From positions 31,672-95,671 of the forward strand of contig CAVRGY010000002.1 in the NCBI GenBank assembly GCA_963720825.1: a DNA stretch of 64,000 nt, in the 5' to 3' direction. Every line of letters begins with the position of its first letter. Positions within the stretch are counted from its first letter, which is position 1. This document shows, piece by piece, positions 27,037 through 58,778 of this stretch. Origin of the DNA: an uncultured Chloroflexia bacterium. GTDB taxonomy: Bacteria; Chloroflexota; Limnocylindria; Limnocylindrales; CSP1-4. The notes under the pieces were generated by a model. The model saw only the letters and a program-made list of their open reading frames with translations, made no database searches and was not told the DNA's origin. Position numbers and translations under genes: made by a program.

Positions 27037-30000
27037 CCGCCCGTCCGCGCCTGCTACCGCGCCTGCGCGTGGTGGCGATGACGATCGTCCTGACCGTCAC
27101 CGGCGTTGCGGTCCAGGCGGCTCCGGTCGCCCCGTCCCACGACATCCCGGATCACCCCTTCAGCCTGCCCCTGCCGTTCGGGCTGGGTCCGCAGACGGCG
27201 CTCGCCGCCTACTGCGCGAGCGGCCCCTCGTTCCAGGGCAAGCTCACCCAGCAGCTCGTCAACTCGGGCACCCCGTCGACCGCGGCCTGGATCACCAGCA
27301 ACACCGTCTACGGCTGGATCAGCCGTGTCGACGCCGCGTGGAGCTGCACCCTCTACCGCCGCTACTCCGGGCTCACCTGGAACGTGACCTCGACTCTGGG
27401 CATCTTCGACTACGGGACGATCATCAACTCGACGTCAGTGTCCTGCAACTGGGGCGTCGGCTCGACCGATTACCTCAAGGCGAACGGCACCCAGGTCTGT
27501 CCGTCGACCGACACCTCGAACGTGCTCTCGATCCAGCTCACCAAGGAGCGCGTCTACCAAGCTGACGCCTCGCACAACGGCGAGGGCGACTACAGCTTCG
27601 TCCACTCGGACTGCGCCACGACCCCCTACTACGGAGCCGAGGTCCAGAAGGGGTCCGAGGCGTCGCCGACCTCGTTCAGCACCGGGACGACCAACAACCG
27701 CCCGGGCGCGAACTGCGACCCGATCGCGCTCGACAGCACCAACACGAGCCAGACCGTCACCTACGACGCGACCGTGCCCACGATCGCGATCAGCAGCCCG
27801 TCGACCGGGACCCCGGCCGCTCCTGCGGTCGTGCCGTCGGCCTTTGCCACGGTCGAGTTCGACGCGACCGACGCCGTCGCGGGCTTCGGCGGCACCAATG
27901 GCTGGAGCCTGCAGCGCAAGGTGGCGACCCCCTCGGGCGGTGCCTGCGGCACGTTCGCGAACGACGGCGCCGCGGTGACCGGGACGAGTGCCGGCACCGG
28001 TCAGCACAGCGGTCAGAGCCTGACGGTCGGCAAGTGCTACCAGTGGGTGCTCACCGCCGCCGACCAGAACGGCAACGCGGCGACCGCGGTCACGTCGGGG
28101 ACGATCCTGACGGACACCAGCGCCGTACTGGGGTCACAGCCCCAGCTGCGGACCGAGTCCTGGGACCTCGGCGCTGGCGACAGCCTCGCTGTCAGCGTCG
28201 GCTCGGGCAACGTGCTCATCAACCACCCGATCGTGAGCCTGCCGATGCGCGGCAGCTCGCTCGACATCGGGCTCACGTACAACAGCCAGGATGCCGGGAA
28301 CGTCGGGTTCGGGGCCGGCTGGCGGCTCAACGTCCAGCGCCGGCTCACGCTCAACGCCGACAACACGGTCACGTTCATCGACGGCAGCGGCGCACGGTAC
28401 ACGTTCACCAACCCGCAGACCAACGGCACCGTCACCACCTACCCGCGGCCGTCCAACCTGTACGCGACCCTCGTGAAGGACACGAGCCAGCAGGTCGAGT
28501 TCACGCTCACCTACAGCGGCCAGAGCCTCGACATGTTCGACATCGCGGGCTCCGAGGGCCTGCTGACGCGTGAGCAGGACCGGTTCGGTAACGGGGTGAC
28601 TCTCGCGTACGTGTCCGGGACCAACCGGATCACGACGATCACCGACACGGCGGCCTCGCCCAACCGGGTCGTCAACTTCGCCTATGACGGCTCCAACCGC
28701 CTGACCTCGATCACCGACTGGGCATATGTGTCGGGGGGCGTCGTCCAGACGGGCGCGACCGGCAGCCGCCGGGTCAGCCGCTTCTTCTACGACGGCTCGT
28801 CCAACCTCGCAGGCTGGGCCGACCCGCTCAACACGACCGGATCCTGCCCAACCGGCGGCAGCCACCTCACCTGCCTCACGCTCACCAACGGACTGGTGAC
28901 CCGGGTCGGCAAGACCCAGACCTACGAGACGCTGGCGTCCGGCGTCCTGGGTTCCGCGACCCGGGCGATGAACACCGACGTCGTGTACTCAGGCTCCGAC
29001 GTCGCCGCGGTCAAGGACGCCGAGCAGGTCGCAGCCAGCGGCAGCGGGGCGACCTTCAGCCACCTCAATCCCGGCCAGACACAGGTCGTCCGCCCCGGGA
29101 CCCCCGCCTCCACAACCCGATATACGCTCGCCTCGCCCACCGACGCATACGGGCGGATCACCTCGGTCAAGCGCCTGCTCGGCGCATCGACCTGGATCGA
29201 GCAGCGGACGGCGTACAACAGCACGTACCCGATCGAGCCTGCCTCAATCACGGACAACTACGTCGACGGGACCCCGTCGGACACCGCGCCCGACGAGGAC
29301 CGGATCACCGCCTACACGTACGTCACGAGCTCGCTGGGCCTCGTGTCGCGGCTGACCGAGCCGCTGACCGCGTCCACCCACCGCACGACCGACTACACCT
29401 ACAACGCCCACAACGACGTGACCCAGCAGATCGTCGCGCTCGATGGCTCAGGCTCGATCCGGACGATCACCAGGTTCTGCTACGACGCGTCGTGCACGAC
29501 ATCGGGCAACGGGCTCACGCTGCTCAGGCGGATCGACAACTACGTTGACGGAACGGCCGGCAACGGTGCCGCCAACGTCGAGGACGTCACCACGAGCTTC
29601 ACGTATGACACGGCCTGCGCGGGCGGCGCGACCTGCGGCCAGGTCACCCGCGAGACGCGTGCCAACTACACCACGGCCGGCACGCTGCTCGACTCGCGCG
29701 CGATCGGGCACACCTACGATGACAAGGGCGACGTCACCTCGGACATCGCGAACTACGTCAATGGCACGGTGACCAGCCCGGGCGACGACATCACGCCCAA
29801 CGCCACCACCGGCGCGCGCACCGACCTCACGATCGCGCACATCTACGACACCGCTGGCAACAGAGTGTCTACTGCCGACCCGCGGCGCGCGATCGAGTCA
29901 GCCAAGGGCACGGCCCTCAACGCCGACGACTTCATCGGCCGCTCGACCTTCGATCCGCTGGGCCAGACCCTCACCAGCACGACCGCGACGACGCCCGGGA

Positions 30001-45413: not shown

Positions 45414-45854
45414 TCATCGACCCATGACGCTGCGCGCCCAACGCAGCAGCCGCGCGGACGGGAGCGCATCGAGCTCGCCGAACGGGATCCACGCCGCCAT
45501 GTCGGAAGATCCGTCGGCCTCATGGCGTATCTCGCCGTCGTCGACGCTCGCCCGGTACACGATCCCGACCGCGTGGATCCGGTCACCGCTCGGGGTCTCC
45601 CCGGGCTCGAGCACCACGGACCGGACCGCGACGAGGCTGCCGACCCTGGCGGTCAAGCCGGTCTCCTCGGTCACCTCGCGGACGACGCCTTCGACCGGGT
45701 CCTCCCCGAACTCGAGCCCGCCGCCGGGCAGCGTCCACCCGCCGGCTCCCGGCGTCCCCGCGGCGACGCGGACCAGGAGCACCCGCCCGGCGTCCTCGAT
45801 CCACGCGTAGGCGGCCAGGCGGACGCGCCGGGGGACCCCGTCGTCCGAGGTCAT
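45414..45854 (-). CDS. NUDIX hydrolase. Its start overlaps the stop of the upstream BMC-P gene.
   Basis: Nudix box GGGLEFGEDPVEGVVREVTEETGL. Confidence 0.75.
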   Translation of the reverse strand: MTSDDGVPRRVRLAAYAWIEDAGRVLLVRVAAGTPGAGGWTLPGGGLEFGEDPVEGVVREVTEETGLTARVGSLVAVRSVVLEPGETPSGDRIHAVGIVYRASVDDGEIRHEADGSSDMAAWIPFGELDALPSARLLRWARSVMGR

Positions 45855-46198
45855 CTCGCCGCGCGGCGGCGTGCGGGTCGAGCCCGCTTGCGCGGCGGCT
45901 GTGCCGCCGTCGACGCATCGGCCGCCGGCCGCGCGAGCTCCACGGCGTCGACGATGCCCACGACCAGCGTCCGGACCGGCGCGTCTCTCGCGTCCAGGAT
46001 CTGGCGTGCGGAGTTCCCCTCGTCCATGAGCAGCACCGTCTCGCCCGGGCCGGCACCCACGGTGTCCACGGCGATCAGGTACCCGCCGGCATCGGCGCCT
46101 TCGGGATCGAGCAGGTCGCACAGGAGCAGCTTGCGGCCGTTGAAGACCGGGACGTTGATCGTCGATGTCACCGTTGCGACCACTCGGGCGAGCTTCAT
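45851..46198 (-). CDS. BMC vertex (pentamer) protein of the EutN/CcmL/PduN family, with a basic Arg-rich C-terminal tail.
   Basis: MKLARVVATVTSTINVPVFNGRKLLLCDLLD…YLIAVDTVGAGPGETVLLMDEGNSARQ…VGIVDAV, then PPRKRARPARRRAAR. Confidence 0.8.
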   Translation of the reverse strand: MKLARVVATVTSTINVPVFNGRKLLLCDLLDPEGADAGGYLIAVDTVGAGPGETVLLMDEGNSARQILDARDAPVRTLVVGIVDAVELARPAADASTAAQPPRKRARPARRRAAR

Positions 46199-46497
46199 CG
46201 CGCGCGCTTCCCGCGTGGAATGCGCTCCCCGTCGGTCGCGACCGCGTCCACGATGCCCACGATCGCATGGTCCACGGGCACGAACGGCTCGTCCAGGGCG
46301 AGCGACGCCTCGCGCGCGGCGACGATGTACACGAGCTCTCCGGGTCCGGCCATCCGGACGGCGTCCGCGGCGACGACCGGCGATCCCTCGGGCTGCTGCC
46401 GGCGATCGAGCGGCTGGACGATCAGCAGCGGCACCCCCTCGAGCCCGGGCGACTTGGTCGACGCCACGACGGTGCCGATGACCCGCGCGAGCTGCAT
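46195..46497 (-). CDS. BMC vertex (pentamer) protein, EutN/CcmL/PduN family.
   Basis: MQLARVIGTVVASTKSPGLEGVPLLIVQPLD…VVAADAVRMAGPGELVYIVAAREAS…IVGIVDAV. Confidence 0.8.
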   Translation of the reverse strand: MQLARVIGTVVASTKSPGLEGVPLLIVQPLDRRQQPEGSPVVAADAVRMAGPGELVYIVAAREASLALDEPFVPVDHAIVGIVDAVATDGERIPRGKRAR

Positions 46498-46498
46498 C

Positions 46499-47089
46499 TC
46501 AGCCGTCCTCGCGGCGCGCGATCCGGTCGCGGAACCGGGAGTCTGCCTCGAGGTTGACACGCATCTCGCCATGCAGCTGGGGGATCACCCGCGAGATCGA
46601 GCGCGCCGCGGCGCCGATCCGGTCCCGGCCCAGCTCGACCGCCGCCTCGACATCGGCGACGCCGCCGCCGAACAGCAGGTATGCCTTGCCGCCGATACCG
46701 TCGGCGAGGCGCAGCTCGAGCAGCCGGACCCGCGCGCCCTTCACCCCGGCGTCGGCCGCATCGATGATCGCGGCCACGGTCTGGGTCTCGATGATGCCCA
46801 GGGCCTCGCCCGTCGACGCGCGCCGGGTGCCGCGGATCGCGGCCACGACCTGGGGGTGGACGTCCGCGAGCAGGACGACATCGAGGATCGACGGGCCGCC
46901 CACGGCGCGTCCTGCCTCGAGCGCCTCCTCGACGTCGGCGACCGCCCCGCCCACGAGCACCAGGTACTTGCCCGGATGGACGGTCCCGGCGTAGATGACG
47001 TCGATGGGGGAGCGCTTGGCCATCGCATCGCCGGTCTCGATCCCGACCGCGATCGAGTCGAGCTCGAGCAGGGCGATGGCCGGCTGCAT
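46499..47089 (-). CDS. BMC-T shell protein with two tandem canonical BMC (PF00936-type) domains.
   Basis: Domain 1 AIALLELDSIAVGIETGDAMAKRSPIDVIYAG…LVLVGGAVADVEEALEAG. Domain 2 ALGIIETQTVAAIIDAADAGVKGARVRLLEL…GGGVADVEAAVELG. Confidence 0.75.
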   Translation of the reverse strand: MQPAIALLELDSIAVGIETGDAMAKRSPIDVIYAGTVHPGKYLVLVGGAVADVEEALEAGRAVGGPSILDVVLLADVHPQVVAAIRGTRRASTGEALGIIETQTVAAIIDAADAGVKGARVRLLELRLADGIGGKAYLLFGGGVADVEAAVELGRDRIGAAARSISRVIPQLHGEMRVNLEADSRFRDRIARREDG

Positions 47090-47091
47090 GG

Positions 47092-48552
47092 TCAGACGAT
47101 CCGGAGCGCGCCGACGACGGTGATCCGCCGCTCGCGCGAGAACGTGCGCGGCCGGGTCAGGCCATCGCCGGTGGGGGAGGCGATCGAGAACGACGAGAAC
47201 CCCTCGCCGCCCTCGCCCAGCCCCGCGAAGTTGGGTCCGTTGGCCACGAAGATGCTGCAGTTCATCGCCCGCGCCATGCGCGTGATCGTGTCCACGTTGG
47301 TCGAGTGGATCGAGGCGGTATGGCGGAACCCGTGCTCGGCGCGGACCGCGAGGTCGATCGCCTGGTCGACGGTCCCGACCCGAACCACGGGCAGCACCGG
47401 CATCATCTGCTCGGTCCACACCAGGCTGTGATCCCGCGGCACCTCCGCGATCAGCAGCCGCGGCTCCGGCTCCACGCTGACCCCGATCTCGGCCAGGATC
47501 TTCGCCGCGTCGCGGCCGATCCAGGCGGGGTTGATCACGCCGGGCTTGCCCGGCTCGCCGAGCTCCCGGAAGATCACCCGCTCCAGGCGCCGGAGCTCGT
47601 GCTCCTTGAGCAGGTAGGCGCCGTTCTGGGTCATCGACCGGATCAGCCGGTCCGCGACCGAATCGACGACCATCACCACCTTCTCGTCGGTGCAGATGAT
47701 GTTGTTGTCGAACGACGCGCCGCGCACGATGTCGCGGCCCGCCCGCTCGACGTCCGCGGTCTGGTCGACCACCGCGGGCGGATTGCCCGGCCCCGCCGTG
47801 ATCGCCCGCTTGTCGGTTCGGAGCGCCTCGCGGACGACGCCCGGGCCGCCGGTGACCAGCAGCACCCGGACGCCGGGGTGGCTCATCAGCGCCCGGGCGC
47901 TGTCGATCGTCGGCTCCACGATCGCGGTGACGAGGTCGGCCGGGCCACCGGCGCCGACAATCGCTCGGTTGATCAGGCGGATCGTCTCGGCCGAGCTGCG
48001 CTTGGCATTGGGGTGGGCGTTGAACACCACGGCGTTGCCGGCGGACACGATGCTGATCGTGTTGTTGATCACCGTCGAGGTCGGGTTCGTGACCGGCGTG
48101 ATCGCGGCCACGACGCCGAACGGAGCCCACTCGGTGACCATCATGCCCAGGCTGCCGGATACCGCCTCGACCTCGAGGTCCTCGGGGCCGGCCGCCTTCA
48201 TCGTCACCAGGCGGTTCTTGACGACCTTGTCCTCGTACCGCCCGAGGTGCGTCTCCTGGTGGGCCATCCGGGCCAGCTGCTCGGCGTGGTCGAGCATCGA
48301 CTGGCGGATGGCCTCGATGATCACGCGCCGCCCGTCGAGACCCATCGACTGGAATGCGCGGAACGCGCCGGTGGCCGCCGCGACGGCGTCGTCGATCGTG
48401 GCGTGGATGCCGTCGCCCAGCTCCGTGGGCGCGGCGGCCAGCTCGGCCTCGGCGCGCAGCGCCGTGCCCAACCGGCCATCGGAGGCGGCGTCGATCCGCC
48501 GCCTGACGCGCTCGATGATGTCCTGGATGTCGCGCTCGCTGAGATCGCTCAT
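47092..48552 (-). CDS. CoA-acylating aldehyde dehydrogenase (PduP/EutE-like) with an N-terminal amphipathic encapsulation-peptide-like helix.
   Basis: AldDH fold with …ITPVTNPTSTVINN…, catalytic region …NIICTDEKV… and the C-terminus GEGGEGFSSFSIASPTGDGLT typical of BMC acylating AldDHs. N-terminal DIQDIIERVRRRI helix. Confidence 0.85.
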   Translation of the reverse strand: MSDLSERDIQDIIERVRRRIDAASDGRLGTALRAEAELAAAPTELGDGIHATIDDAVAAATGAFRAFQSMGLDGRRVIIEAIRQSMLDHAEQLARMAHQETHLGRYEDKVVKNRLVTMKAAGPEDLEVEAVSGSLGMMVTEWAPFGVVAAITPVTNPTSTVINNTISIVSAGNAVVFNAHPNAKRSSAETIRLINRAIVGAGGPADLVTAIVEPTIDSARALMSHPGVRVLLVTGGPGVVREALRTDKRAITAGPGNPPAVVDQTADVERAGRDIVRGASFDNNIICTDEKVVMVVDSVADRLIRSMTQNGAYLLKEHELRRLERVIFRELGEPGKPGVINPAWIGRDAAKILAEIGVSVEPEPRLLIAEVPRDHSLVWTEQMMPVLPVVRVGTVDQAIDLAVRAEHGFRHTASIHSTNVDTITRMARAMNCSIFVANGPNFAGLGEGGEGFSSFSIASPTGDGLTRPRTFSRERRITVVGALRIV

Positions 48553-48555
48553 CGG

Positions 48556-48843
48556 CTACTTCCGGTAAACCTCACGACCGCCGACCTCCCAGGTGTCGAC
48601 GATCGCCATGATCACGGCGTCGCACGGACGATCCTTCGTCATCTCGGTCTGGCGAGCGGAGCTGCCCGTCGCGTACAGGACGACCTCGCCCACACCGGCG
48701 CCCACGGCGTCTGCAGCGACGACGTAGCCGCCGCCCTCGTGGTTGTCGGTATCGAGCTGGCGCACGAGGAGCAACGCCCAGCCCTCGATCAGCGGTTCCT
48801 TGCGGCTGGAGACGACCGTTCCGGCCACCCGTCCAAGGAGCAT
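48556..48843 (-). CDS. BMC vertex (pentamer) protein, EutN/PduN family.
   Basis: [31 protein letters not shown]…[25 protein letters not shown]…VIMAIVD. Confidence 0.8.
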
Positions 48844-48901
48844 GGCTTCCTCCCGGGTCCGGGCCGCGATCGCGCTGCGACCGCGGCCCCTGGTGCGAAC
48901 G

Positions 48902-49210
48902 TCAGTCGTCGCCCTTCTCGCCCTTGGCCTGCTCGGCACGACCGAGCGGGAGCACGAGGTCCACGTTGCTGTGCGGCCGCGCGATGACGTGGCTGGTGAC
49001 CACCTCGCCGACCTTGGCGGCCGCCCGGACGCCGGCCTCGACGGCGGCCTTGACCGCCGCGACGTCGCCGCGCACGACCGCGGTCACGTAGCCGCCGCCG
49101 GTCTTCTCGTAGCTGACGAGCTCGACCTTGGCCGCCTTGACCATCGCGTCGGCCGCCTCGACCATCGCGGCGAACCCGCGGGCCTCGATCATGCCCAGTG
49201 CTTCAGCCAT
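48902..49210 (-). CDS. BMC-H hexameric shell protein (PduA/EutM-like).
   Basis: [78 protein letters not shown]. Canonical BMC-H. Confidence 0.9.
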
Positions 49211-49255
49211 CGATCCTCTCCTTCGTCGTTGTCATTGCCGTGTGGGTGGTGGGTG

Positions 49256-49885
49256 TCAGCTCTTGGCCTCGCGACCGTCGAGGCCCTCGATCGAGGCCAG
49301 CGCCGCGCGCCAGCCGACGTCGATGTCCCGCTCCTCGCCGCCGAGGTAGATCCGGCCCATCGAGCCGAACGTGCGGACCTCGAGGATGTTGATGTGGGCC
49401 GCCTTCTCCGCCTCGTTGGCCGCCAGGGCCGCGTAGGCCGCGGGCTCGAGCTCGAGCACGTACAGCGTCTCGCCCGGGATCAGCATCTGGCCGTGCCGGG
49501 TGCGGTTGATGAGCTGTGCCTGGTGGTCATCGATGCGGCGGATGATCTGGCTGGACAGGATCCGGGGCTTGATCCGGTCCTTCTCCTCGAGGCCGATCTC
49601 GCGCAGGATCGCCGCGCCGGCCGCCCGGACCTCCGCCTGCGAGGGCGAGTGGACCTCGAGCATGCCGTAGTAGCGCTCGATGATCTGCATCCCCGGCTTG
49701 ACCGAGGTGGACTTGAGGGCGATGTCCGTCAGGCGGTTGATCTCGATGCCGGGCGACACCTCGATCGACAGCGACGCGTCGCCGGCCAGCGGCAGGAACC
49801 CCTGCGCGACGGTCCCCAGGAACGCGGCGTACTGCGCCTGGAGGCTGTCGAGGAAGACATAGGCGCGAAGGTCAATATTGCTCAC
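49256..49885 (-). CDS. BMC-T shell protein of the permuted tandem type (EutL/PduB-like).
   Basis: 209 aa with two halves resembling permuted BMC domains (…[27 protein letters not shown]…GMLEVHS…; …[42 protein letters not shown]). Assignment is by pattern similarity to EutL. Confidence 0.5.
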
Positions 49886-50738
49886 GCGCTCCCCTCTCTC
49901 CTGTGACGATCTTGACGCCGGCGGAAGCCCCGATCCGGGTGGCGCCGGCGGCGATCATGTCCTGGACATCCTCGGCGGTGCGGATCCCGCCCGAGGCCTT
50001 GACGCCCATCCGCGAGCCCACGGCCTCGCGCATGAGAGCGACGTCGAACACGGTCGCGCCACCCGATGCGTAGCCCGTCGAGGTCTTGACGAAGTCGGCC
50101 TTGGCCTCCTTCGCGAGGTGGCACGCGACGACCTTCTCCTCGTCGGTGAGGAGCGCGGTCTCGATGATCACCTTGTTCAGGGCGCCCGACTCGTGGCACG
50201 CGTCCGAGACGCGATCGATGTCCTCGCGGACGGTGTCCAGCATGCCGCTCTTGAGCGCCCCGATGTTGATCACCATGTCGATCTCGCGCGCGCCGTCGCG
50301 GATGGCCCGGCGCGCCTCCATGGCCTTGACCTCGGTCGTCGCGGCGCCGAACGGGAAGCCGATCACCGAGGCGACCGCGACATCGGTCCCGCGCACGTTG
50401 TCCGCGGCGCGTCGGATCCAGGTGGGGTTGATGCACACCGCCGCGAAGTGGTGCTCGACCGCCTCGGCGCACAGCCGGTCGATGTCGGCGGCGGTGGCGT
50501 CGGGGCGGAGCAGGGTGTGGTCGATGTACCCGGCGAGGTCCAGCGGCACGTCGCTGCCCCGCCCGTGGTACGCGATCCGGGTGGCGCCGTTGGTCACGAC
50601 GTCGCGGACCTTGTCCGCGCAATGCGCGGCGCACGACCCGCCGCAGTTGATGCACGTCTCGCCGCCCAGCGAGAACGTCGCCAGCACCTCCCGGGTGATC
50701 GTCTCGATCAGCAGGTCCCGGTCATCGATCGTCGTCAT
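49872..50738 (-). CDS. deoC: Deoxyribose-phosphate aldolase (DERA/DeoC) with a ~60-aa N-terminal extension containing an amphipathic helix and a C-x2-C-x3-C-x3-C motif.
   Basis: Core …[11 protein letters not shown]…AAVCINP…, Schiff-base lysine context FVKTSTGY, …KASGGIRT… Extension [43 protein letters not shown] overlaps the rpiB stop. Confidence 0.85.
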
Positions 50739-51358
50739 CGCGTCCCAACCCCGGTGCCGTCCTTCAGGTAGTGCCGCTCGATGGCGGTGATCTTGTCCAC
50801 GCGCGCCGCGTGGCGACCCGGTCCCCAGGGCGTGGCCAGCCACTCGGTCACGATGTCCAGCGCAAGCCCGGCGCCGGTGAGCCGCGCCCCCAGCGTGAGC
50901 ACGTTGGCGTGATTGTGCTCGCGGCTGTTGCGTGCCGTTGACAGGTCGTGGCACATCGCGGCGCGGACGCCGGGCACCTTGTTGGCGGCCATGCACGAGC
51001 CGATGCCGGCGCCGTCGACCACGATCCCGACGGCGCAGGTGCCGTCGGCGACCAGCTTCGCCACGGCCAGCGCGAGATCCGGGTAGTCGACGGCATCCTC
51101 GCTGCCCGTGCCGCAGTCGTGGACCACGTGGCCGCGCTCGGCGAGCGCCTGCCGGAGCTGCTCCTTGAGCCGGTACCCGCCGTGGTCCGCGCCGATGGCG
51201 ATGGAGGGGGGACCCTGCCCGTCGGGGGCACCGGCATCGATGTGCGCGGCAGCCGTCGTCACGGTCGCCGTGGCAGCGGGCACGTACACGGCGTCGACGA
51301 TGCGGCGGACTACGTCCCGGACGTCCTGCTCGGTGGGGCGGACCCGCAGCTCAGCCAT
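50735..51358 (-). CDS. rpiB: Ribose-5-phosphate isomerase B (RpiB/LacAB family) with a ~50-aa N-terminal extension carrying an amphipathic helix.
   Basis: Core [16 protein letters not shown]…[12 protein letters not shown]…[24 protein letters not shown]…HNHANVL. Extension [31 protein letters not shown]. Confidence 0.8.
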
Positions 51359-52377
51359 GCGCAGCCAGCCAGTCCGCGGTGCCTTCGTCGGTGATCAGCG
51401 TGTTCACGCAGCCGGCCCGGATGGCGGCGAGCGCGATGGGCCCGCGCCCGGGTCCGGCGGCGAGCCCGATGGTATGGTCCTTGGTCGCGAGCTCCGCGAG
51501 CGGCAGGCCGACCGTGCGCTGGTCGAGGTCCGGCAGTGCGATGCGGCCTTCGGGGGTGACGAACCGGCCCAGGATGTCGCCCACGGCTCCGGCCTCGCGC
51601 AGGAGCTTCCGGTCCGCGGGCGCCACGAACCCGGACTCGACGAGGACGCTGCCGGGCTCCGGGATGCCGAGGCTGAACACGGCGAACGGGGCGCGCCGGG
51701 CGGCTTCCAGCGTGTCGCCCACGGACGGGTCCGCCTCGAGCGCGACCCGCAGCGCGGCGGACCCCACGATCGCCGGCGCGGGCATCAGCCGGATCGATCC
51801 GCCGCTGGTGACCCCGAACCGGTCCACGATCTCGCCGGCACGGGTCGGGGTCGCCGAGCGGGACGTCGCCCCGTTGAGCTGGACGATCTCGGTGGCGGTC
51901 GTCCAGCCCGGCTCGAGGGCACGGGACAGCTCGAGCATCGTCCGGCCCCACGACACGCCGATCGCGCCCGTCGGCCGGATCTCGGCGAGATAGCGCGGCG
52001 GCAGCCCTCGCGACCGCCTCTCGCGCGACGGCGGTCGCGGCGTCGGCCGAACCCTCCGCGGTGCCCGGACCGGCGCCTGCGTCGGCGACGATCGCCGCAC
52101 GCAGCCCGAAGCGGGCGACCAGCTGTTCCTCGACCTCGACCAGCCGGGCGGCGGGGTGGACGATCTCGATCCGTACGATCGATTCGCGGACGGCCCGGTC
52201 GAGCAGCCGGCCGACCTTGAACCGGCTGAGGCCGAGGCGAGCCCCGATCTCCTCCTGGGTCAGCGCCATGCCGTAGTACATCCGCGCGACGCGGACGAGG
52301 AGCCGCGGATCCGAGGTGCCACGAACCGGGGCAGCGGCGGTCGTCACACGCGCTCCGGATTGCTCATGTGCGTACAT
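51310..52377 (-). CDS. SorC/DeoR-family sugar-binding transcriptional regulator. Apparent frame break near 51960-51995 between the HTH part and the sugar-binding part.
   Basis: N-terminal HTH (…[37 protein letters not shown]…). The SorC-type sugar-binding domain ([26 protein letters not shown]…IVQLNGA…) continues in the adjacent frame (ORF 51351..52100). Confidence 0.7.
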
Positions 52378-52522: not shown

Positions 52523-53488
52523 ATGACCAGCCAGGGAACGTCCGGCGAACCCGCGGTGATCGTGGTCGCGGGCGAGGCGCTGATCGACCTCATCGTGCTC
52601 CCGGACGGGCGGCTGGTCCCGGCACCCGGTGGCGGGCCGTACAACACCGCCAGGGCCATCGCCCGCCTGGAGGTCCCGGTGGCCTGGATCGGCGGGCTGT
52701 CGTCGGATCGCTTCGGGCGGATGCTCGAGGCCGGGCTCGTCCGCGACGGCGTGTCGCTCGACCTCGTGCAGCGAACCGACCTGCCGACGACGCTCGCCCT
52801 GGCCGAGCTCGACGAGGACGGCGTCGCCGCGTACCGGTTCTACGTCGATGGGACGTCCGCGCCGGCCGTGGTGACCGGGCCCTTCGAAGGCGGGCTGCCG
52901 GCGGGGACGCGGGCCGTTCACGTGGGCACGCTCGGGCTCGTGCTCGAGCCGATGGCCGCAACGCTGGAATCGCTGGTCGCGATGCTTCCCGATGACGTGA
53001 CCCTCATGGTCGACCCCAACTGCCGGCCGTCGATCACCACCGATCCGGACGCCTACCGGGCGCGGGTGGCGCGCGTGCTGGAGCGGACCGACGTGGTCAA
53101 GGTCAGCGCCGACGACCTCGCCTGGCTGTACCCGGGCGTCCCGCTGTCCGAGGCCGTCGCGCGGCTGGCCGGCGACCGCGACCGCGTCGTCCTGCTCACC
53201 GACGGCGGCCGCTCGGTCACGGTGCACGCCGGGGGCGCGAACCACACGATGCCGGTCCCGTCGGTGCGGGTCGTCGACACGGTGGGTGCGGGCGATACCT
53301 TCGGCGGCGCGTTCCTCGCAGCAATCGTCCGCGCCGGGCTGGGGCGGGCTGACCTGCATGTTGCCGGGGCGGTGCTCGACGCGGTGCGGTTCGCGATCCG
53401 CGCCTCAGCGATGGCCTGCGAGCGCGCCGGCGCCGACCCGCCGACGCTGGCCGAGCTCGGCGGATGGCCGGTGGGCGGCTCCGGGTAG
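52523..53488 (+). CDS. PfkB-family carbohydrate kinase (ribokinase / fructokinase / deoxyribokinase-like).
   Basis: N-terminal GG motif (…VAGEALIDLI…GGGPYNTA), C-terminal anion hole VVDTVGAGDTFGGAFLAA. Confidence 0.8.
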   Translation: MTSQGTSGEPAVIVVAGEALIDLIVLPDGRLVPAPGGGPYNTARAIARLEVPVAWIGGLSSDRFGRMLEAGLVRDGVSLDLVQRTDLPTTLALAELDEDGVAAYRFYVDGTSAPAVVTGPFEGGLPAGTRAVHVGTLGLVLEPMAATLESLVAMLPDDVTLMVDPNCRPSITTDPDAYRARVARVLERTDVVKVSADDLAWLYPGVPLSEAVARLAGDRDRVVLLTDGGRSVTVHAGGANHTMPVPSVRVVDTVGAGDTFGGAFLAAIVRAGLGRADLHVAGAVLDAVRFAIRASAMACERAGADPPTLAELGGWPVGGSG

Positions 53489-53588
53489 CCGGTCCAACAG
53501 CGGGCGCAGACGCGGGCCGGCGCTACCGGTCCGTCGGCCCGGCGGCGAGCGGCCGGTCCGGCGCTTGCGCGGCGCCTAGACTTCGCGC

Positions 53589-54485
53589 GTGGACCCGCTC
53601 GCCCTCGCCTTCATCGCGCTGGCGGCGGTGCTCCACGCCGCGTGGAACGTGCTGCTCAAGACCGCCGACGACCCGCTGTGGACCGCGACGGTCGGGCTCG
53701 TCGCGGTCTCCGTGGTGCTCGTGCCCGCGGTCGCGATCGGGTGGCTGGTCCTGGGGCGGCCCGCGATCCCGACCGACGCGTGGCTGCTCGGCGTGGCCTC
53801 GGGCGGGGTCGAGGTGGTGTACTTCCTGTTCCTCGCGGCGGCCTACCGTCGCGGCGACCTGTCGCTCGTGTACCCGCTCGCGCGCGGCAGCGCGCCGCTG
53901 CTCGCGATCGTGCTGGGTCTCGGGGTCCTGGGCGAGCGACTGGCGCCCGGGGCAATCCTCGGCGTCGCGCTCCTGGTCGCGAGCCTGCTCATCGTCCAGC
54001 GGCCGTGGCGCCTGCTGCGCGCGGCAGAGGCGCGCGACGATCGATCCGCGGCCGGGTTCGCGCTGCTCACGGGCGCGATGATCGCCTCGTACTCGGCCAT
54101 CGATCGCGTCGGCGTCCAGCTCGTGCCACCGTGGCTGTATGCGGGGATCCTGTGGCCGACATGCGCGATCGGCCTTGGCCTGATCGCCGTCGTCCGGGCC
54201 CGGCGCGGCGATGTCCCCATCGCGACGATGGGGGTCATGGCAGCCCGCCGGCGCGCGGTGTCGGCGGGCGTGCTCACGGTCGCCGCGTACGGGCTGGTCC
54301 TGGCGGCGCTGCGGCGCGCGCCGCTGGCGGTGGTTGCCCCGCTCCGCGAGTCGGCCGTGCTGCTCGCCACCACCTGGGGGGTGGTCCGGCTGCGAGAGGC
54401 CCGGGACCCCGGCGAGGTGTCCCGCCGGATCGTCGGGGCTATGCTGGTCCTCGCGGGAGCCGGCGTGCTCGCCATCGCCCGCTGA
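53589..54485 (+). CDS. EamA/DMT-family transporter.
   Basis: Ten predicted TM helices in two EamA halves. Hydrophobic throughout. Confidence 0.65.
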   Translation: MDPLALAFIALAAVLHAAWNVLLKTADDPLWTATVGLVAVSVVLVPAVAIGWLVLGRPAIPTDAWLLGVASGGVEVVYFLFLAAAYRRGDLSLVYPLARGSAPLLAIVLGLGVLGERLAPGAILGVALLVASLLIVQRPWRLLRAAEARDDRSAAGFALLTGAMIASYSAIDRVGVQLVPPWLYAGILWPTCAIGLGLIAVVRARRGDVPIATMGVMAARRRAVSAGVLTVAAYGLVLAALRRAPLAVVAPLRESAVLLATTWGVVRLREARDPGEVSRRIVGAMLVLAGAGVLAIAR

Positions 54486-54512
54486 GCACGCCCAAACGCA
54501 CAGAGGTCCCGA

Positions 54513-55517
54513 ATGCCCCGACTGACCCTCGGCTACAAGGCGTCCGCAGAGCAGTTCCCGCCCCGCCGCCTGCTCGACCTCGCGGTGGCGGCCGAGGCCG
54601 CAGGGTTCGACTCCGTCTGGACCAGCGACCACTTCCAGCCCTGGCGCCACACCGACGGTCATGCCCCCAACGCCCTGGTCTGGCTGGGCGCCGCGACCCA
54701 GGTGACGCAGCGGGTGACGCTGGGCACGAGCGTGCTCACCCCGTCCTTCCGGTACAACCCGGCCATCGTGGCCCAGGCGTTCGCCACCCTGGCCTGCCTC
54801 GCCCCCGGCCGGGTGATCCTGGGCGTGGGCACGGGCGAGTCGATGAACGAGGTCCCGGTGGGCGTGGACTGGCCCGAGCAGAAGGAGCGGTTCGCGCGTC
54901 TCAAGGAGGCGGTGACCCTCATCGGCCGGCTGTGGCGCGAGGAGTTCGTCGACTTCAGCGGTGAGTTCTTCCGCACCCACGAGGCGACCGTCTACGACCG
55001 CCCGGACACCCCCGTGCCGATCTACATCGCGGCCTCGGGTCCGGCCGCGGCGAGGCTGGCCGGGCGGATCGCGGACGGGTTCATCTGCACCAGCGGCAAG
55101 GGTGCCGAGCTGTACACCGACACCCTGCTGCCGGCGCTCGCCGAGGGGGCCGCGAAGGTGGGCCGGGACGCCGCGGCGATGGACCGGATGATCGAGATGA
55201 AGGTCAGCTTCGACCCCGATCGTTCGCGGGCGATGGAGGACACCAAGGAGTGGTCGGCGCTGGCGCTGCCGGGCGAGATGAAGGTCGGCGTCCACGACCC
55301 GCGCCAGATGGAGATCCTCGCCAAGCACGCCGAGCCCTACGCGCACACCCGCTGGCTCGTGTCCGACGATCCCGACGAGCACGTCGATCAGATCGCCCCG
55401 TACCTCTCCTACGGGCTCAACCACCTCGTGTTCCACTTCCCGGGCAACGACCAGGAGACGGCCATCGCGCGCTACGGGAAGGTCATCCTGCCGAGGCTTC
55501 GCGAGCGCTTCGGCTGA
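54513..55517 (+). CDS. fgd: F420-dependent glucose-6-phosphate dehydrogenase-like (luciferase-like monooxygenase family) oxidoreductase.
   Basis: LGYKASAEQFPPRRLLDLAVAAEAAGFDSVWTSDHFQPWRH…LGTSVLTPSFRYNPAIVAQAFATLACLAPGRVILGVGTGE…GFICTSGKG…GLNHLVFH. Close to mycobacterial Fgd1 throughout. Confidence 0.8.
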   Translation: MPRLTLGYKASAEQFPPRRLLDLAVAAEAAGFDSVWTSDHFQPWRHTDGHAPNALVWLGAATQVTQRVTLGTSVLTPSFRYNPAIVAQAFATLACLAPGRVILGVGTGESMNEVPVGVDWPEQKERFARLKEAVTLIGRLWREEFVDFSGEFFRTHEATVYDRPDTPVPIYIAASGPAAARLAGRIADGFICTSGKGAELYTDTLLPALAEGAAKVGRDAAAMDRMIEMKVSFDPDRSRAMEDTKEWSALALPGEMKVGVHDPRQMEILAKHAEPYAHTRWLVSDDPDEHVDQIAPYLSYGLNHLVFHFPGNDQETAIARYGKVILPRLRERFG

Positions 55518-55568
55518 CGCCGCCGCGCCGGCGGCATCCCGCTTCGGCGCCCTCTGGACTGGTCCACG

Positions 55569-56759
55569 ATGGTCCGCATTCGCCTGCTGTTCGTGCTCAA
55601 CGGCGCGGAGATCGCCGTGCTGGGTCCGTTCGCCTCGGTGATCCTCGCGGGCCGCGGGTTCAGCCCGGCCGTGATCGGCCTGGTGACGGCGCTCACCTCG
55701 GTCGCGTTCATCGTGTCGGTGTCCGTGTGGGGCCACCTGGGCGATGTCGTGCTCGGGCGTGCCCGGGCGCTCAGCGTGTCGATCCTGCTGGCGGCGGGAT
55801 TGCTGGTGCTGTTCCTGCTGCCGTTGCCGCCGCTCGCGGTGGGGGCCGCCTATGTCGCATATGCCGCGTGCTACGGTGCCGCGGGGCCGCTGTCCGATGC
55901 GCTGGCGGTCAACGCGATGCGTGACCCCGCGCGCGAGTACGGGCGGGTTCGCAGCGGGTCGAGCGCGGCGTTCGCGGTCGCCGCGGTCGCATTCGGGGTG
56001 CTCTACGGCTCGCTCGGGTACTGGCCGGCCGGGGTCATGTTCCTCGTGCTGGGCATCGCGATCGCGCTGGTCGCGCGTGGGGTCCCGGACCTGGGACGGG
56101 CGCAGCTCACGGCGCACCGTCGCGGGGGCGCGATCCGCGAGGCATTCGCGGTCGACCCTGCCATGCCCCGGGTCCTGGTCGCCGTCGGCCTGGCGTACGT
56201 GGGCGTGTTCGCCGGTTTCACGTTCCTGTCGCTGCGGATCGTCGAGCTCGGCGGTGGGGCGCCCGAGGTGGCGCTGTCATCCGCGGTTGCGGCCGCCGCC
56301 GAGGTCGGCGCCATGGTCGCCGCCGGCCGTGCGGTGCCGCGGATCGGGATCCGGGGACTGTTCGTGGTGTCCGTGGCCCTGTACGTGGTGGCGTTCCTGC
56401 TGTGGGCCGTGCTCGGGTCAGCGCTTGCGATCGTCGCCTCCCGGCTGATCTCGGGCACCGGGTTCGCGGGGCTCTGGATCGCGAGCGTGATGACCATCCA
56501 GCAGGTGATGCCGCCCCGCCTCCAGGGATCGGGGCAGGCGTTGATCTCGATCACCACGGCGGGTGTGGCGGCGTTCCTGGCCAACGTCGTCGGCGGGCTC
56601 CTGTACGCGGAGGGCGGGCCCGAGGTCCTGTTCGGGATCTCCGCGCTGCTCGCCGTGGCCGGCGCCGTGGTGGGCTGGCGCTATCTCCCGGCCAGGGGCG
56701 CCCGTCGATGGCGTCGAGCCGATCTGCCGCTCGGAGACGGCGATGCCCTCCGGGACTGA
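55569..56759 (+). CDS. MFS transporter.
   Basis: Twelve TM segments in a 6+6 arrangement with MFS-like loop motifs. Confidence 0.7.
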   Translation: MVRIRLLFVLNGAEIAVLGPFASVILAGRGFSPAVIGLVTALTSVAFIVSVSVWGHLGDVVLGRARALSVSILLAAGLLVLFLLPLPPLAVGAAYVAYAACYGAAGPLSDALAVNAMRDPAREYGRVRSGSSAAFAVAAVAFGVLYGSLGYWPAGVMFLVLGIAIALVARGVPDLGRAQLTAHRRGGAIREAFAVDPAMPRVLVAVGLAYVGVFAGFTFLSLRIVELGGGAPEVALSSAVAAAAEVGAMVAAGRAVPRIGIRGLFVVSVALYVVAFLLWAVLGSALAIVASRLISGTGFAGLWIASVMTIQQVMPPRLQGSGQALISITTAGVAAFLANVVGGLLYAEGGPEVLFGISALLAVAGAVVGWRYLPARGARRWRRADLPLGDGDALRD

Positions 56760-56888
56760 ACGCCCACATCGACGCGCCGTCCGGACCGCCGCGCGGTGTC
56801 CGGCGGCCCGTGGTCGGCTGCGACGGCGGCCCTAGAATTCATCAACCGACGAATCGCCGGTGGCGGCTTCCCGCACCTGGAGCCAACA

Positions 56889-57654
56889 GTGCACAGCGAC
56901 GCGCCCTCCCCAGCTGACGCGGCGGCCGCGGCCCGGCCCGCGGTCCGCGCGGTCGACCTGGTCAAGGCCTTCGGTCCGTTGCGCGCGGTCGATGGCGTGT
57001 CGTTCGAGCTCGCGCCCGGCCGGATCTACGGGATCCTGGGACCGAACGGCTCCGGCAAGACGACGCTGATCCGGCTGCTGACGGGCATGGCGCGCGCCAC
57101 GTCCGGCCACGCCGAGGTGCTGGGCGTCCGGATGCCGTCGCGGTCCCAACCTCAGCCGGATCGGGTACATGACCCAGAGCGACGGGATCTACCCGGCGCT
57201 GACCGTGGGCGAGAACGCGCGGTTCTTCGCCGCGGTCTACGGGGTCGACGGCGATGCGCCGGTGGTCGAGGCGCTCGAGCTCGTCAACCTGGCCGATCGA
57301 ACCGAGTCGGTCGCGGGCACGCTGTCGGGTGGCCAGCGCCGGCGGCTGTCGCTGGCGTGCGCGCTCGTCCACCGCCCGACGATCCTGTTCCTCGACGAGC
57401 CGACCGTGGGCATCGACCCGCTGCTCCGGGTCGAGTTCTGGACCCACTTCCGCAAGCTCGCCGCGGACGGCGTCACCCTCGTCGTGTCGAGCCACGTGAT
57501 GGACGAGGCCGACCGCTGCGACGAGCTGCTGTTCATGCGCGCGGGCCGGGTCATCGGGCGTGGCACCGGCCGCGACCTGCGGGCCGCGGCCGCCACGGAC
57601 GACCTCGAGCAGGCCTTCCTCCAGTTCGCCGGCGAGACGGAGGCCGCCCGATGA
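56889..57654 (+). CDS. ABC transporter ATP-binding protein. Frame break near 57138-57150 splits it between ORFs 56796.. and 57169..57654.
   Basis: Walker A GPNGSGKTT, then in the next frame NLSRIGYMTQ, signature LSGGQRRRLSLACAL, Walker B ILFLDEPTVGID. Confidence 0.75.
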
Positions 57655-58778
57655 ACCCGCGTCGCCTGCGAGCCCTGTTCCGGCGCGTCGTCCAGGAGAT
57701 CCGGCGCGACCGTCCGTCGCTCGCCCTCCTGTTCATCGCGCCCGTCCTGATGACCGGGCTGCTCACGTTCATCCTGCGCGAGGGCGAAACGCCGGCGGTC
57801 AACGTCGCGGTCGTCGAGACCGGGGTTCCCGCGGCCAGCTTCATCCAGAACCTCAAGCTCAGCCTCGCTGCCGACGGCGGAACGGTGACGCAGGTGCCGG
57901 ACGAGGCAGCCGCGCGGGCCGCCGTTGCGGACGGGACGGCGTCGATCGGGATCATCCTGCCGGCCGACAAGGCAGTCGGCGGGACCATCACGCTCATCAC
58001 CAACGGCCTGGATCCGTTCGCGGAGGCCACGCAGGTGGGCATCGTGACCAAGGCGCTCATCGGCGTGATGACGTCGGGCGCGATGCCGGCGATCGAGCAC
58101 GTCACGGTGTACGGGACGCCCAGCGCGGACCCGATCGCGCCGTACGCACCGGCGATCATCGGGTTCTTCGTCTACTTCTTCGTGTACATCCTGACCGGCG
58201 TGAGCTTCCTGCGCGAGCGGACCGGCGGCACCCTGGAACGCCTGATGGCAACGCCGGTCACGCGCGGCGAGGTCGTCGCCGGGTACACGATGGGCTTTGC
58301 CCTGTTCGCGACGCTCCAGGTCGCGATCCTGCTCACCTGGACTCTCGGCACGGTGCATGTCGCCGCGATCGGGCCGCTGCCCGCGTTCTCGATCGGCCTC
58401 GGGGTGGAGCTGGCGGGCAGCCCCGTGGTCGCGTTCCTGGTCGTGCTGTTGGTCGCCGTCGGCGCCGTCAGCCTGGGCATCTTCCTGTCCACCTTCGCCC
58501 GCACCGAGCTCCAGATCGTGCAGTTCATCCCGATCGTGATCGTCCCCCAGTTCCTGCTGTCGGGGATCCTGATCCCGATCAGCGGCCTGCCGGGGCTGTT
58601 GCAACCGCTGGCCGCCGTGATGCCCGTCACGTATGCGGTGGACGGCCTGCGCCAGGTCCTGATCCGGGGGGCGGACCTCGCGACGCCGGAGCTCCAGCTC
58701 GATCTCGGCGTGCTCGCGCTGATCGCCGTGTTCTTCGCCGTGATCGCGTCGCTCACGATCCGCCGCGACGTGGCGTGA
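57651..58778 (+). CDS. ABC-2 family transporter permease.
   Basis: N-terminal TM, extracytoplasmic domain and a cluster of five C-terminal TM helices. ATG overlaps the ATPase stop. Confidence 0.7.
   Translation: MNPRRLRALFRRVVQEIRRDRPSLALLFIAPVLMTGLLTFILREGETPAVNVAVVETGVPAASFIQNLKLSLAADGGTVTQVPDEAAARAAVADGTASIGIILPADKAVGGTITLITNGLDPFAEATQVGIVTKALIGVMTSGAMPAIEHVTVYGTPSADPIAPYAPAIIGFFVYFFVYILTGVSFLRERTGGTLERLMATPVTRGEVVAGYTMGFALFATLQVAILLTWTLGTVHVAAIGPLPAFSIGLGVELAGSPVVAFLVVLLVAVGAVSLGIFLSTFARTELQIVQFIPIVIVPQFLLSGILIPISGLPGLLQPLAAVMPVTYAVDGLRQVLIRGADLATPELQLDLGVLALIAVFFAVIASLTIRRDVA

Follow-up and report, generated by a model that had tools for sequence, protein, structure and literature searches.

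The DERA, the RpiB-like protein and the aldehyde dehydrogenase encoded here carry N-terminal extensions, and we consider it very probable that this region forms the enzyme-coding end of a sugar-phosphate utilisation (SPU) BMC operon of the SPU3 type, in which these extensions package the cargo. All features given coordinates below lie on the minus strand and are numbered within the window, i.e., the whole 64,000-nt stretch of DNA analysed. The operon spans 45414-52377, and on that strand its genes follow the order SorC-type regulator, RpiB, DERA, CcmP-like BMC-Tdp, BMC-H, BMC-P, AldDH, PduT-like BMC-Ts, BMC-P, BMC-P, and NUDIX. The DERA (deoxyribose-phosphate aldolase) gene (49872-50738, 288 aa) matched Pfam PF01791 (E 6e-22) and solved DERAs from the PDB (E 7e-77) with its catalytic residues kept, which is the SPU signature. 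It adjoins a gene for a 207-aa RpiB-family protein (50735-51358; PF02502, E 2e-52; PDB RpiB, E 4e-45), in which D115 (codon 51014-51016) occupies the position of the catalytic Cys66 in a pairwise alignment with E. coli RpiB. The third enzyme is a CoA-acylating aldehyde dehydrogenase (AldDH) of 486 aa (47092-48552; PF00171; PDB 5jfl, E 7e-128). The SPU shell genes are also present, namely a BMC-H hexamer protein of 102 aa (48902-49210; PF00936, E 6e-30) and BMC-P pentamer proteins at 48556-48846 (PF03319, E 6e-28), 46195-46497 (PF03319, E 2e-25), and 45851-46198. The last of these, found by tblastn with the other two (40-43% identity), completes the triplet; it starts with an ATG that shares bases with the stop codon of the second BMC-P, and it is conserved in related loci. 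The CcmP-like BMC-Tdp (49256-49885, 209 aa) matched CcmP in the PDB (E 1e-86) and, weakly, the Pfam BMC domain, while the PduT-like tandem BMC-Ts (46499-47095) contains two Pfam BMC domains (PDB PduT, E 3e-39) and has a His at the PduT pore-cysteine position ('tvhpgky' aligned with 'tispgkf'). No PduS-type Pfam match was obtained in the operon or in the other nearby ORFs scanned.

SPU3 loci are recorded from Chloroflexi, Actinobacteria, Acidobacteria, and other phyla in Supplementary Data 2 of Sutter et al. (2021, Nat Commun). The locus matches the written description given there: a single BMC-H with a BMC-P triplet, a BMC-Tdp of the CcmP-like kind, a BMC-Ts with neither a PduS partner nor a pore cysteine, AldDH, pfam01791 DERA and pfam02502 RPI as the only enzymes, RPI upstream of DERA, and N-terminal encapsulation peptides (EPs) on AldDH and DERA. 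It differs by its SorC-type regulator and trailing NUDIX gene. The subtype was set by that written description rather than by BMC Caller HMMs or shell-protein colour clades. The locus is an ordinary further example of an SPU arrangement already published, extensions included, and it adds little as such: an uncultured high-GC bacterium supplies another SPU case that behaves as the published descriptions predict. Among the points against this reading, a locus devoid of PTAC, alcohol dehydrogenase, and PduS leaves cofactor recycling within the compartment unaccounted for. The same is true of the published SPU2, SPU3, and SPU6 loci.

To delimit the extensions, we aligned the enzymes with Pfam domains and solved homologues. 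The DeoC domain starts at about aa 71 of the DERA, and solved DERAs of 220-230 aa align from aa 66-68 of the query; the extension is therefore 65 aa long, against a published value of about 70 aa for SPU DERAs. In RpiB, the Pfam domain begins at aa 53 and the alignment with solved RpiBs opens at aa 52-53, giving an extension of 52 aa. Both lengths are close to the roughly 60 and 50 additional residues proposed for DERA and RpiB in the first-pass annotation. The remainder of the DERA (aa 66-288, 49875-50543) is a catalytic TIM-barrel core that can be aligned with solved DERAs over its entire length. Its residues D154, K218, and K247, invariant in a 67-sequence alignment, are those which, from our own reading of the motifs, we take to be E. 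coli D102, K167, and K201.

That the extensions are annotation artefacts, with true starts further downstream (e.g., a GTG near V64 in DERA) and untranslated upstream codons, seems extremely improbable to us. By our reading of the sequence, in-frame GTG codons do occur within the DERA extension, and automated annotation is reported to drop these extensions often (PMC11585597). However, GC3 is the same in the extensions (0.97 for DERA, 0.87 for RpiB, and 0.95 for AldDH) as in the respective cores, and each start overlaps the end of the gene before it. The DERA ATG (50738) and the rpiB stop share an ATGA, and the rpiB ATG is placed 8 nt before the regulator reading frame ends. Independent gene callers also gave DERAs of 284-300 aa, and the identical 288-aa product is encoded on a sibling contig (L081). 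Moreover, the extension is conserved in 120/120 of the closest DERA homologues and in 120/120 of the closest RpiB homologues, and across these 240 sequences the conservation is patterned: helix and motif are kept, whereas the linker varies (in RpiB, in both length and sequence). Equal GC3 and conservation together indicate that the extensions are coding. Separately, a 374-aa ORF with a GTG start (49872-50996) was considered as the DERA gene and rejected as spurious, since the initial 86 codons coincide with rpiB sequence read in a different frame.

With the extensions taken as translated, those of RpiB and AldDH are the simpler ones. As modelled by AF2, the RpiB tail is a textbook encapsulation peptide, in which a helix (aa 10-24, 51287-51331; pLDDT ~94) precedes a low-confidence Pro/Ala/Thr-rich linker (aa 25-51, 51206-51286; pLDDT ~45, ranging over 43-56, no secondary structure) that is variable in length among homologues. 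The hydrophobic moment over 14 residues of this helix is 0.82, a value reached in 40 of 5000 shuffles. Among 73 aligned sequences, R14 and V17 are invariant and V13, R18, R19, and V21 are conserved in at least 90%. For AldDH, the N-terminus reads MSDLSERDIQDIIERVRRRI, exactly as the first-pass annotation had given it, and the helix that it had described as amphipathic (aa 6-23, ERDIQDIIERVRRRIDAA, 48484-48537) has a hydrophobic moment of 0.89, reached in 63 of 5000 shuffles and at the 99.8th percentile within its own protein. The closest loci keep the E-I-Q-x-I-I-E-R-V-R-R-R motif in their AldDH. About 20 unaligned residues separate this helix from the core, and 4c3s, a truncated solved homologue, aligns from aa 44. 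AldDH is thus predicted from its sequence to carry a classical encapsulation peptide, formed by an amphipathic helix and a poorly conserved linker.

The DERA extension is made of several parts: an EP-like helix, a variable linker, and a cysteine motif with a helix/strand segment that enters the TIM barrel. The helix (aa 5-22, 50673-50726) was predicted by AF2 with a pLDDT of ~58 (44-58 over the whole extension) from a shallow alignment of 67 sequences, all at least 75% identical. Its hydrophobic moment of 0.49-0.56, around the 90th percentile within its own protein, makes it moderately amphipathic; as such a value is unexceptional, the case for the helix lies in conservation and context. In the same 67 sequences, L10 and T15 are invariant, and R7, E12, I14, R16, V18, and A20 are conserved in at least 90%. 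Its L-L-I-x-x-I-x-x-x-V-L pattern presumably resembles those of PduP and PduD, whose moments we also computed. The Gly-rich linker measures 6 residues here (SLGGET) and 0-30 aa among relatives. It leads into a C-x2-C-x3-C-x3-C motif (aa 29-40, 50619-50654) and a conserved 25-residue segment (aa 41-65, 50544-50618), and these two conserved elements make up approximately 40 of the 65 extension residues. This last segment starts with a short helix (H42-49 in AF2), continues as a strand-like stretch into the barrel, and contains invariant V44, G51, A52, R54, G59, V64, and P65; 65 of 80 related loci retain its 'GAxR(I/V/L)' motif.

The proposal that the DERA and RpiB tails each combine a helix with a Gly/Ala/Pro linker, as in EPs, therefore holds for RpiB and fails in part for DERA, where a 6-residue linker is followed by about 40 conserved residues. 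A terminal amphipathic helix of about 15-20 residues, the first mark of an EP, is strong in RpiB and AldDH, and in DERA it combines low pLDDT with a moderate moment. The second mark, a flexible linker, is found in RpiB and may be represented by the unaligned stretch in AldDH. The three tails share with the Pdu/Eut peptides (PduP, PduD, EutC; Fan et al., 2010, 2011; Aussignargues et al., 2015) an amphipathic helix at the terminus, about 18 residues long, and absence from non-BMC homologues; the poorly conserved linker of those peptides has its counterpart in RpiB and probably in AldDH, while in DERA some 40 further conserved residues come after the short linker. The Pdu peptides have reportedly been shown by experiment to target cargo, whereas here targeting is predicted from sequence and models.

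The cysteines of the DERA extension are the sole detail of this locus that is absent from Supplementary Data 2 of Sutter et al. (2021) and from the main text of the SPU6 study (Commun Biol 2024, PMC11585597). C29, C32, and C36 are invariant in both of our alignments (A1 and A3), and the motif occurs in 118 of the 120 closest DERA homologues, with Cys (92) or Ser (26) at the fourth position. DERAs of the Anaerolineae SPU6 type have another four-cysteine spacing, C-x3-C-x4-C-x3-C, at the same place. These observations count in favor of a reading in which the extension is more than a targeting peptide and the three or four cysteines form a metal or Fe-S site, or redox-sensitive disulfides, that would control assembly or activity of the lumenal DERA. 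Other BMC cargo with cysteine-rich, BMC-specific extensions has been listed, namely the MIC3 AldDh, the MIC6 oxidoreductase, and a MUF2 protein (Sutter et al., 2021, Supplementary Data 2). The MIC3 AldDh 4-Cys domain and the 4xCys tail of the MIC6 FAD oxidoreductase are likewise short conserved multi-Cys elements found only in BMC-associated enzymes according to that supplement. They differ in being C-terminal and in belonging to other enzyme families, and no sequence relation to them was found, the extension profile having retrieved DERAs only. A Pfam search of the DERA extension and three variant extensions, with E values up to 10, returned only Fer4_21 (E 0.0085). This weak resemblance agrees with a metal site, but its 16.6 bits fall below the cutoff of 35, and no domain was assigned. 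The number of cysteines also depends on the clade: some have four or five, others three with a Ser, and others two or none, with several shell-associated DERAs (L008, L010, L012, L075, L080) lacking them altogether. Furthermore, the AF2 model is uninformative on a metal site, with no confident fold for the cysteine region (pLDDT <50), and the main text of the 2024 study models this region as two low-confidence strands with no mention of metal (PMC11585597). Taken together, we hold the metal or redox reading to be rather unlikely, and only tentatively suggest from sequence patterns that the SPU DERA extension could work, in addition to being an EP, as a small module for assembly that depends on redox state or metal. 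The motif, conserved yet lineage-variable and undiscussed in those portions of the SPU papers, is worth flagging and could be tested cheaply, and the division of the extension into distinct parts is a further useful outcome.

Packaging by the extensions is the reading that we favor, and their distribution across genomes bears on it. Among the 80 related loci kept for counting, 54/54 shell-adjacent DERAs had the extension or an RpiB-DERA fusion; two of them (L041 and L080) were scored as short by the motif test, and the extension was seen on inspection. Conversely, 7/7 canonical-length DERAs had neither shell genes nor RpiB nearby. The extensions are also missing from the solved non-BMC structures of DERA and RpiB. 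When the extension profile was compared with 1.84 billion representative proteins, no other cargo enzymes were retrieved, only DERAs, RpiB-DERA fusions, and frameshifted calls thereof. These data independently confirm that only DERA and RPI of the SPU type carry the extensions. Absence from non-BMC homologues, the third mark of an EP, is thus observed, though for 19 DERAs with the extension the flanking sequence fetched contained no shell gene, and in 10 of these cases it reached at least 6 kb in each direction. Hence, the extension does not always come with a shell operon next to it, and such DERAs may belong to satellite loci. The first-pass annotation had named two computational tests of its proposal, helicity with amphipathicity and absence from non-BMC orthologues. 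AF2 placed helices in DERA and RpiB, amphipathicity is strong in RpiB and AldDH and moderate in DERA, and the orthologue comparison agrees for both the solved structures and the canonical-length genomic DERAs. Every one of these tests supports the EP-like nature of the extensions.

Reasoning from the homologous Pdu/Eut systems and from the characterized SPU6 enzymes, we infer that the cargo is encapsulated, binds the shell, and carries pathway flux. The helices would mediate self-association of the cargo and docking on the inner face of the shell, so that DERA, the RpiB-like protein, and AldDH are co-packaged. The compartment would take in deoxyribose-5-phosphate, and AldDH would trap the acetaldehyde as acetyl-CoA. 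The RpiB-like protein, with Asp in place of the catalytic Cys, would most likely act as a DERA-binding packaging partner and not as a ribose-5-phosphate isomerase. DERA and RPI from the SPU6 locus of Chloroflexi bacterium GWB2_54_36 are the only SPU enzymes known to have been characterized experimentally. The main text of the 2024 study on them does not report the recovery of cargo from SPU shells, whether native or reconstituted (PMC11585597). It states that every SPU DERA carries an N-extension of about 70 aa lacking in non-BMC DERAs, that all SPU RPIs have the Cys to Asp substitution, and that an RPI with a typical N-terminal EP is standard in most SPU subtypes (PMC11585597). With SPU RPI extensions already published, an encapsulated RpiB is to be expected, and the first-pass view of it as unusual does not stand. 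The suggestion that it bears on the substrate crossing the shell had likewise been anticipated: the SPU6 RPI shows negligible activity on ribose-5-phosphate, binds DERA in a 1:1 complex, and has been proposed as a packaging factor (PMC11585597).

These properties of the SPU6 RPI also fit another view, in which the extensions serve mainly in core aggregation and enzyme-enzyme assembly instead of shell docking, and the RpiB-like protein is a catalytically dead, CcmM-like scaffold that serves solely to nucleate the DERA/AldDH core. Asp stands at the D115 position in 73/73 aligned RpiB homologues as well as here, RpiB-DERA fusions exist among the related loci, and full-length SPU6 DERA aggregates and becomes soluble upon deletion of its N-extension (PMC11585597). 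CcmM and the catalytically dead GRM AldDH copies described in the same text share an enzyme fold, a substituted catalytic residue, a targeting element, and a proposed role as core organizer with this RpiB (PMC11585597). Unlike them, it keeps the rest of its active site, and the invariance of D58, H59, H148, R182, and R186 argues for retained catalysis on some substrate. In addition, the published DERA-RPI complex assembled without the DERA extension (PMC11585597), which implies that the extension does not hold the pair together. We judge the scaffold view to be possible but somewhat improbable. It overlaps with the packaging explanation, and the contrast between them is one of emphasis.

Compared with SPU6, the locus described here has a similar DERA N-extension, with an amphipathic helix and then a low-confidence segment, and a similar RPI, with an N-terminal EP, a linker, Asp for the catalytic Cys, and adjacent rpi and dera genes. 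The DERA cysteines differ, being arranged as C-x3-C-x4-C-x3-C or reduced to two in SPU6 and as C-x2-C-x3-C-x3-C here. The AldDHs of SPU6-type relatives are 30-35% identical to the present one and lack an N-terminal EP; the EP of the SPU6 AldDH has been placed at the C-terminus (PMC11585597). No BMC-Ts was found by tblastn in SPU6-type loci. As for the neighbors of the operon, no NUDIX gene was found at the same position among the related loci, and this gene as well as the divergent PfkB, EamA, luciferase-like, and MFS genes were rejected as parts of the system, not being conserved beside related loci. Scans of the whole window for tRNAs and Rfam families gave no matches. The SorC/DeoR-type sugar-binding regulator (51351-52377) recurs in the closest relatives only. 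One extra base near 51995 splits it over two frames, with the HTH in one and the Sugar-bind domain (PF04198) in the other, and it is intact (331 aa) on contig L081, which is 99.06% identical.

The operon under study, a sugar-phosphate utilisation (SPU) type bacterial microcompartment (BMC) locus, lies in a window with a G+C content of about 72%, which crowded the mechanical ORF list with spurious frames; its genes were delimited by codon-position GC, translation and Pfam. All are tightly packed on the minus strand: a SorC/DeoR-type sugar-binding regulator (51351-52377), the pfam02502 isomerase-family protein RpiB (50735-51358, 207 aa), deoxyribose-phosphate aldolase (DERA; 49872-50738, 288 aa), a CcmP-like BMC-Tdp (49256-49885, 209 aa; CcmP match with E 1e-86), a BMC-H (48902-49210), a BMC-P (48556-48846), AldDH (47092-48552, 486 aa), a PduT-like tandem BMC-Ts (46499-47095), a second and a third BMC-P (46195-46497 and 45851-46198) and a NUDIX hydrolase (45414-45854). 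At several junctions, rpiB/DERA among them, one gene's start codon overlaps the stop of the gene before it as ATGA. The true start of DERA is the ATG at 50738; a 374-aa GTG ORF was ruled out as the DERA gene by its overlap with rpiB.

Assigned by description, this gene content matches published SPU3 loci on every point. The enzymes are AldDH, pfam01791 and pfam02502 only, with pfam02502 upstream and N-terminal encapsulation peptides (EPs) on AldDH and pfam01791. The shell comprises a single BMC-H, a BMC-P triplet, a CcmP-like BMC-Tdp and a BMC-Ts lacking both a PduS partner and the pore cysteine. At the PduT pore-cysteine position, the BMC-Ts carries a His (TVHPGKY); the cluster-binding PduT residue aligned to it is Cys38. 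No PduS gene was found near the BMC-Ts, and both points agree with the SPU3 description, in which the BMC-Ts is purely structural. In contrast, the AldDH of the Anaerolineae relatives is distant and lacks an N-terminal EP, and these relatives have no BMC-Ts, which fits SPU6.

The first-pass annotation had credited DERA and RpiB with about 60 and 50 extra N-terminal residues, and both estimates were close. Solved DERA structures (220-230 aa) align from query residues 66-68 and the Pfam DeoC domain starts at about residue 71, hence an extension of 65 residues; for RpiB, solved structures align from residue 52-53 and Pfam from 53, hence 52 residues. AldDH, whose N-terminus is MSDLSERDIQDIIERVRRRI, aligns from residue 44 with a solved homologue that is itself truncated. 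Third-position GC of the extensions (0.97 in DERA, 0.87 in RpiB, 0.95 in AldDH) equals that of the cores. Using alignments of 67 (DERA) and 73 (RpiB) homologues, AlphaFold2 predicted a helix at RpiB residues 10-24 (pLDDT ~94) and no structure for residues 25-51 after it (pLDDT ~45), and the hydrophobic moment of this helix is high (0.82, equalled in 40 of 5000 shuffles). That of the AldDH helix is also high (0.89, equalled in 63/5000), bearing out the amphipathic N-helix proposed for this enzyme. DERA helices were predicted at 5-22 and 42-49, with low confidence throughout the extension (pLDDT 44-58) and only a moderate moment (0.49-0.56, about the 90th percentile within its own protein). The first-pass observations are right, with one correction: in DERA the Gly-rich linker amounts to SLGGET alone, and what comes next is a conserved element instead of further linker.

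The extension of DERA is conserved among close relatives. All 120 closest homologues (75-93% identical, 284-317 aa) keep four elements: an N-terminal helix (consensus D-E-R-D-x-L-I-E-A-I-T-R-E-V-L-A-A-L), a variable Gly/Ala/Pro linker of about 0 to 30 residues, the motif C-x2-C-x3-C-A-A-x-(C/S) and the segment K-V-R-D-V-V-x-x-G-A-x-R-I-x-Y-H-G-x-x-x-D-V-P. The 120 closest RpiB homologues share a conserved N-terminal stretch opening with E-(E/D), then a Pro/Ala-rich spacer differing in length and sequence, which is the classical EP layout. The AldDH motif E-I-Q-x-I-I-E-R-V-R-R-R is preserved in the closest genome loci.

The cysteine motif of DERA (C-x2-C-x3-C-x3-C/S; 50619-50654, minus strand, residues 29-40) separates the EP-like helix from the core. 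C29, C32 and C36 are invariant in alignments of close homologues, and the motif occurs in 118 of the 120 closest, 92 of which have Cys at the fourth position and 26 Ser. Many Anaerolineae have the cysteines re-spaced to C-x3-C-x4-C-x3-C, others keep the outer two only, and none are present in certain loci of Acidimicrobiia, Thermoanaerobaculia, Anaerolineaceae and Spirochaetes that are associated with shell genes. Pfam returned only a sub-threshold ferredoxin-like match on the extension, and AlphaFold2 gave no confident fold for this region. The motif is unmentioned in the SPU literature searched; in the 2024 SPU paper (PMC11585597), "cysteine" refers to the RPI active site only and "Fe-S" is absent. 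BMC-specific Cys-rich tails on other cargo enzymes have been catalogued (Sutter 2021). A metal or redox function is conceivable, though unsupported, and we consider it unlikely.

To relate the extensions to BMC loci, one genome per species was scanned and 80 DERA loci were kept with flanks of up to 8 kb; these were searched with the shell proteins, RpiB and AldDH of the window, and for every DERA match the reading frame was followed upstream. Seven DERAs (e.g. Fervidibacillus, Arthrobacter, Caldilinea) had the canonical short N-terminus, and none had a shell gene or RpiB neighbour within these flanks. All 54 DERAs with flanking shell genes have an extension or follow an RpiB domain in a fusion that has an EP-like helix internally, a count including two loci scored short by the motif test, L041, where the extension is encoded in a shifted frame, and L080. 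In L080 (a Spirochaetes MAG) and two RpiB-DERA fusions (L073, L077), a plain Ala/Pro/Ser linker is all that stands between EP-like helix and DERA core; the Cys motif and conserved segment are absent from all three, so this part is dispensable in some shell-associated loci. The short DERAs agree with locus-specific extensions, with the caveat that the fetched flanks of 19 extension-bearing DERAs, mostly Acidobacteriota, contained no shell gene (for 10 of these, 6 kb or more was available on each side). Detached pfam01791 genes with the extension have been described for HO-type genomes (Sutter 2021). In a set of DERAs, again mostly Acidobacteriota (L032, L037, L055-L058, L063, L064, L070, L076 and others), the EP-like helix and conserved GAxR segment occur with neither shell genes nor RpiB inside 8 kb; such genes may be satellites that provide cargo to a BMC whose own locus is at another genomic site. 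An extension-only profile gave 102 matches among 1.84 billion representative proteins. Each atypical one that was examined proved to be a DERA, an RpiB-DERA fusion or a frameshifted call of either, so the module is DERA's own and not a common cargo tag. In certain clades, the RpiB genes upstream of DERA (L028, L046, L061, L062, L075, L038, L045, L054, L067) have a different conserved N-terminal module of ~50 aa that replaces or precedes the short EP helix; its motif is (I/V)TPLAR(E/Q)xAxxRGI(R/Q)(L/I), and it is presumably similar to the N-terminus of EutQ-like BMC proteins.

The central first-pass inference, EPs on all three cargo enzymes and hence a predicted encapsulation of RpiB, is correct by the SPU descriptions; the first-pass view that this is unusual fails, as it is the textbook state of the SPU type (PMC11585597). 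The interpretation was right in substance but already known. All SPU DERAs have a ~70-residue N-terminal extension, with an amphipathic helix and two low-confidence strands, that non-BMC DERAs lack; SPU RPIs have a typical N-terminal EP and linker, and SPU AldDH EPs are N-terminal except in SPU6, where they are C-terminal (PMC11585597). The catalytic Cys66 is replaced by Asp in all SPU RPIs, and experimentally the SPU6 RPI has negligible ribose-5-phosphate isomerase activity, forms a 1:1 complex with DERA, and the SPU6 DERA becomes soluble once its extension is removed (PMC11585597). In our RpiB, D115 sits at the Cys66 position, with Asp likewise in 73/73 aligned relatives and the other active-site residues retained. 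EP-dependent recruitment of DERA-containing cargo has been reported from experiments on archaeal SPU-like compartments (2025 preprint, PMC12747264). By analogy with Pdu/Eut systems and SPU6, the helices would drive cargo coalescence and shell docking. Deoxyribose-5-phosphate would enter the compartment, DERA would cleave it, giving glyceraldehyde-3-phosphate plus acetaldehyde, and AldDH would convert the latter to acetyl-CoA; the RpiB-like protein may bind DERA as its packaging partner or may isomerise another substrate. Since PTAC, alcohol dehydrogenase and PduS are all missing from the locus, this pathway leaves cofactor recycling unaccounted for.

The NUDIX hydrolase (45414-45854) is translationally coupled to the last BMC-P through ATGA, and no related locus had such a gene at the same position; it possibly supplies a sugar phosphate. 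A divergent plus-strand cluster (52523-56759) encodes a PfkB-family sugar kinase, an EamA transporter, a luciferase-like monooxygenase and an MFS/nucleoside-symporter-like transporter, and could deliver a phosphorylated (deoxy)sugar, but related SPU loci do not have it conserved at their side. Compared with the sibling contig L081 (ENA ERZ25039495 contig_68594, 99.06% identical), the window contig differs by 7 single-base indels over 10 kb. One extra base near 51995 splits the regulator gene over two frames; the SorC-type regulator is intact on L081 (331 aa), and the frameshift probably reflects an error in assembly, not a pseudogene. In the ABC transporter genes (~56796-58778, plus), single-base indels at 57147 and 57978 accompany ABC_tran Pfam fragments split between two frames; L081 encodes the ATPase and the permease as two genes, each of them intact. 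L081 has indels of its own in the PfkB and luciferase-like genes. Finally, a 2229-aa ORF (25989-32678, plus) with DUF6531 and RHS-repeat matches, typical of polymorphic-toxin-type proteins, is unrelated to the BMC locus; its stretch has a lower G+C (0.64-0.70) and a strong A-over-T skew (~0.2).
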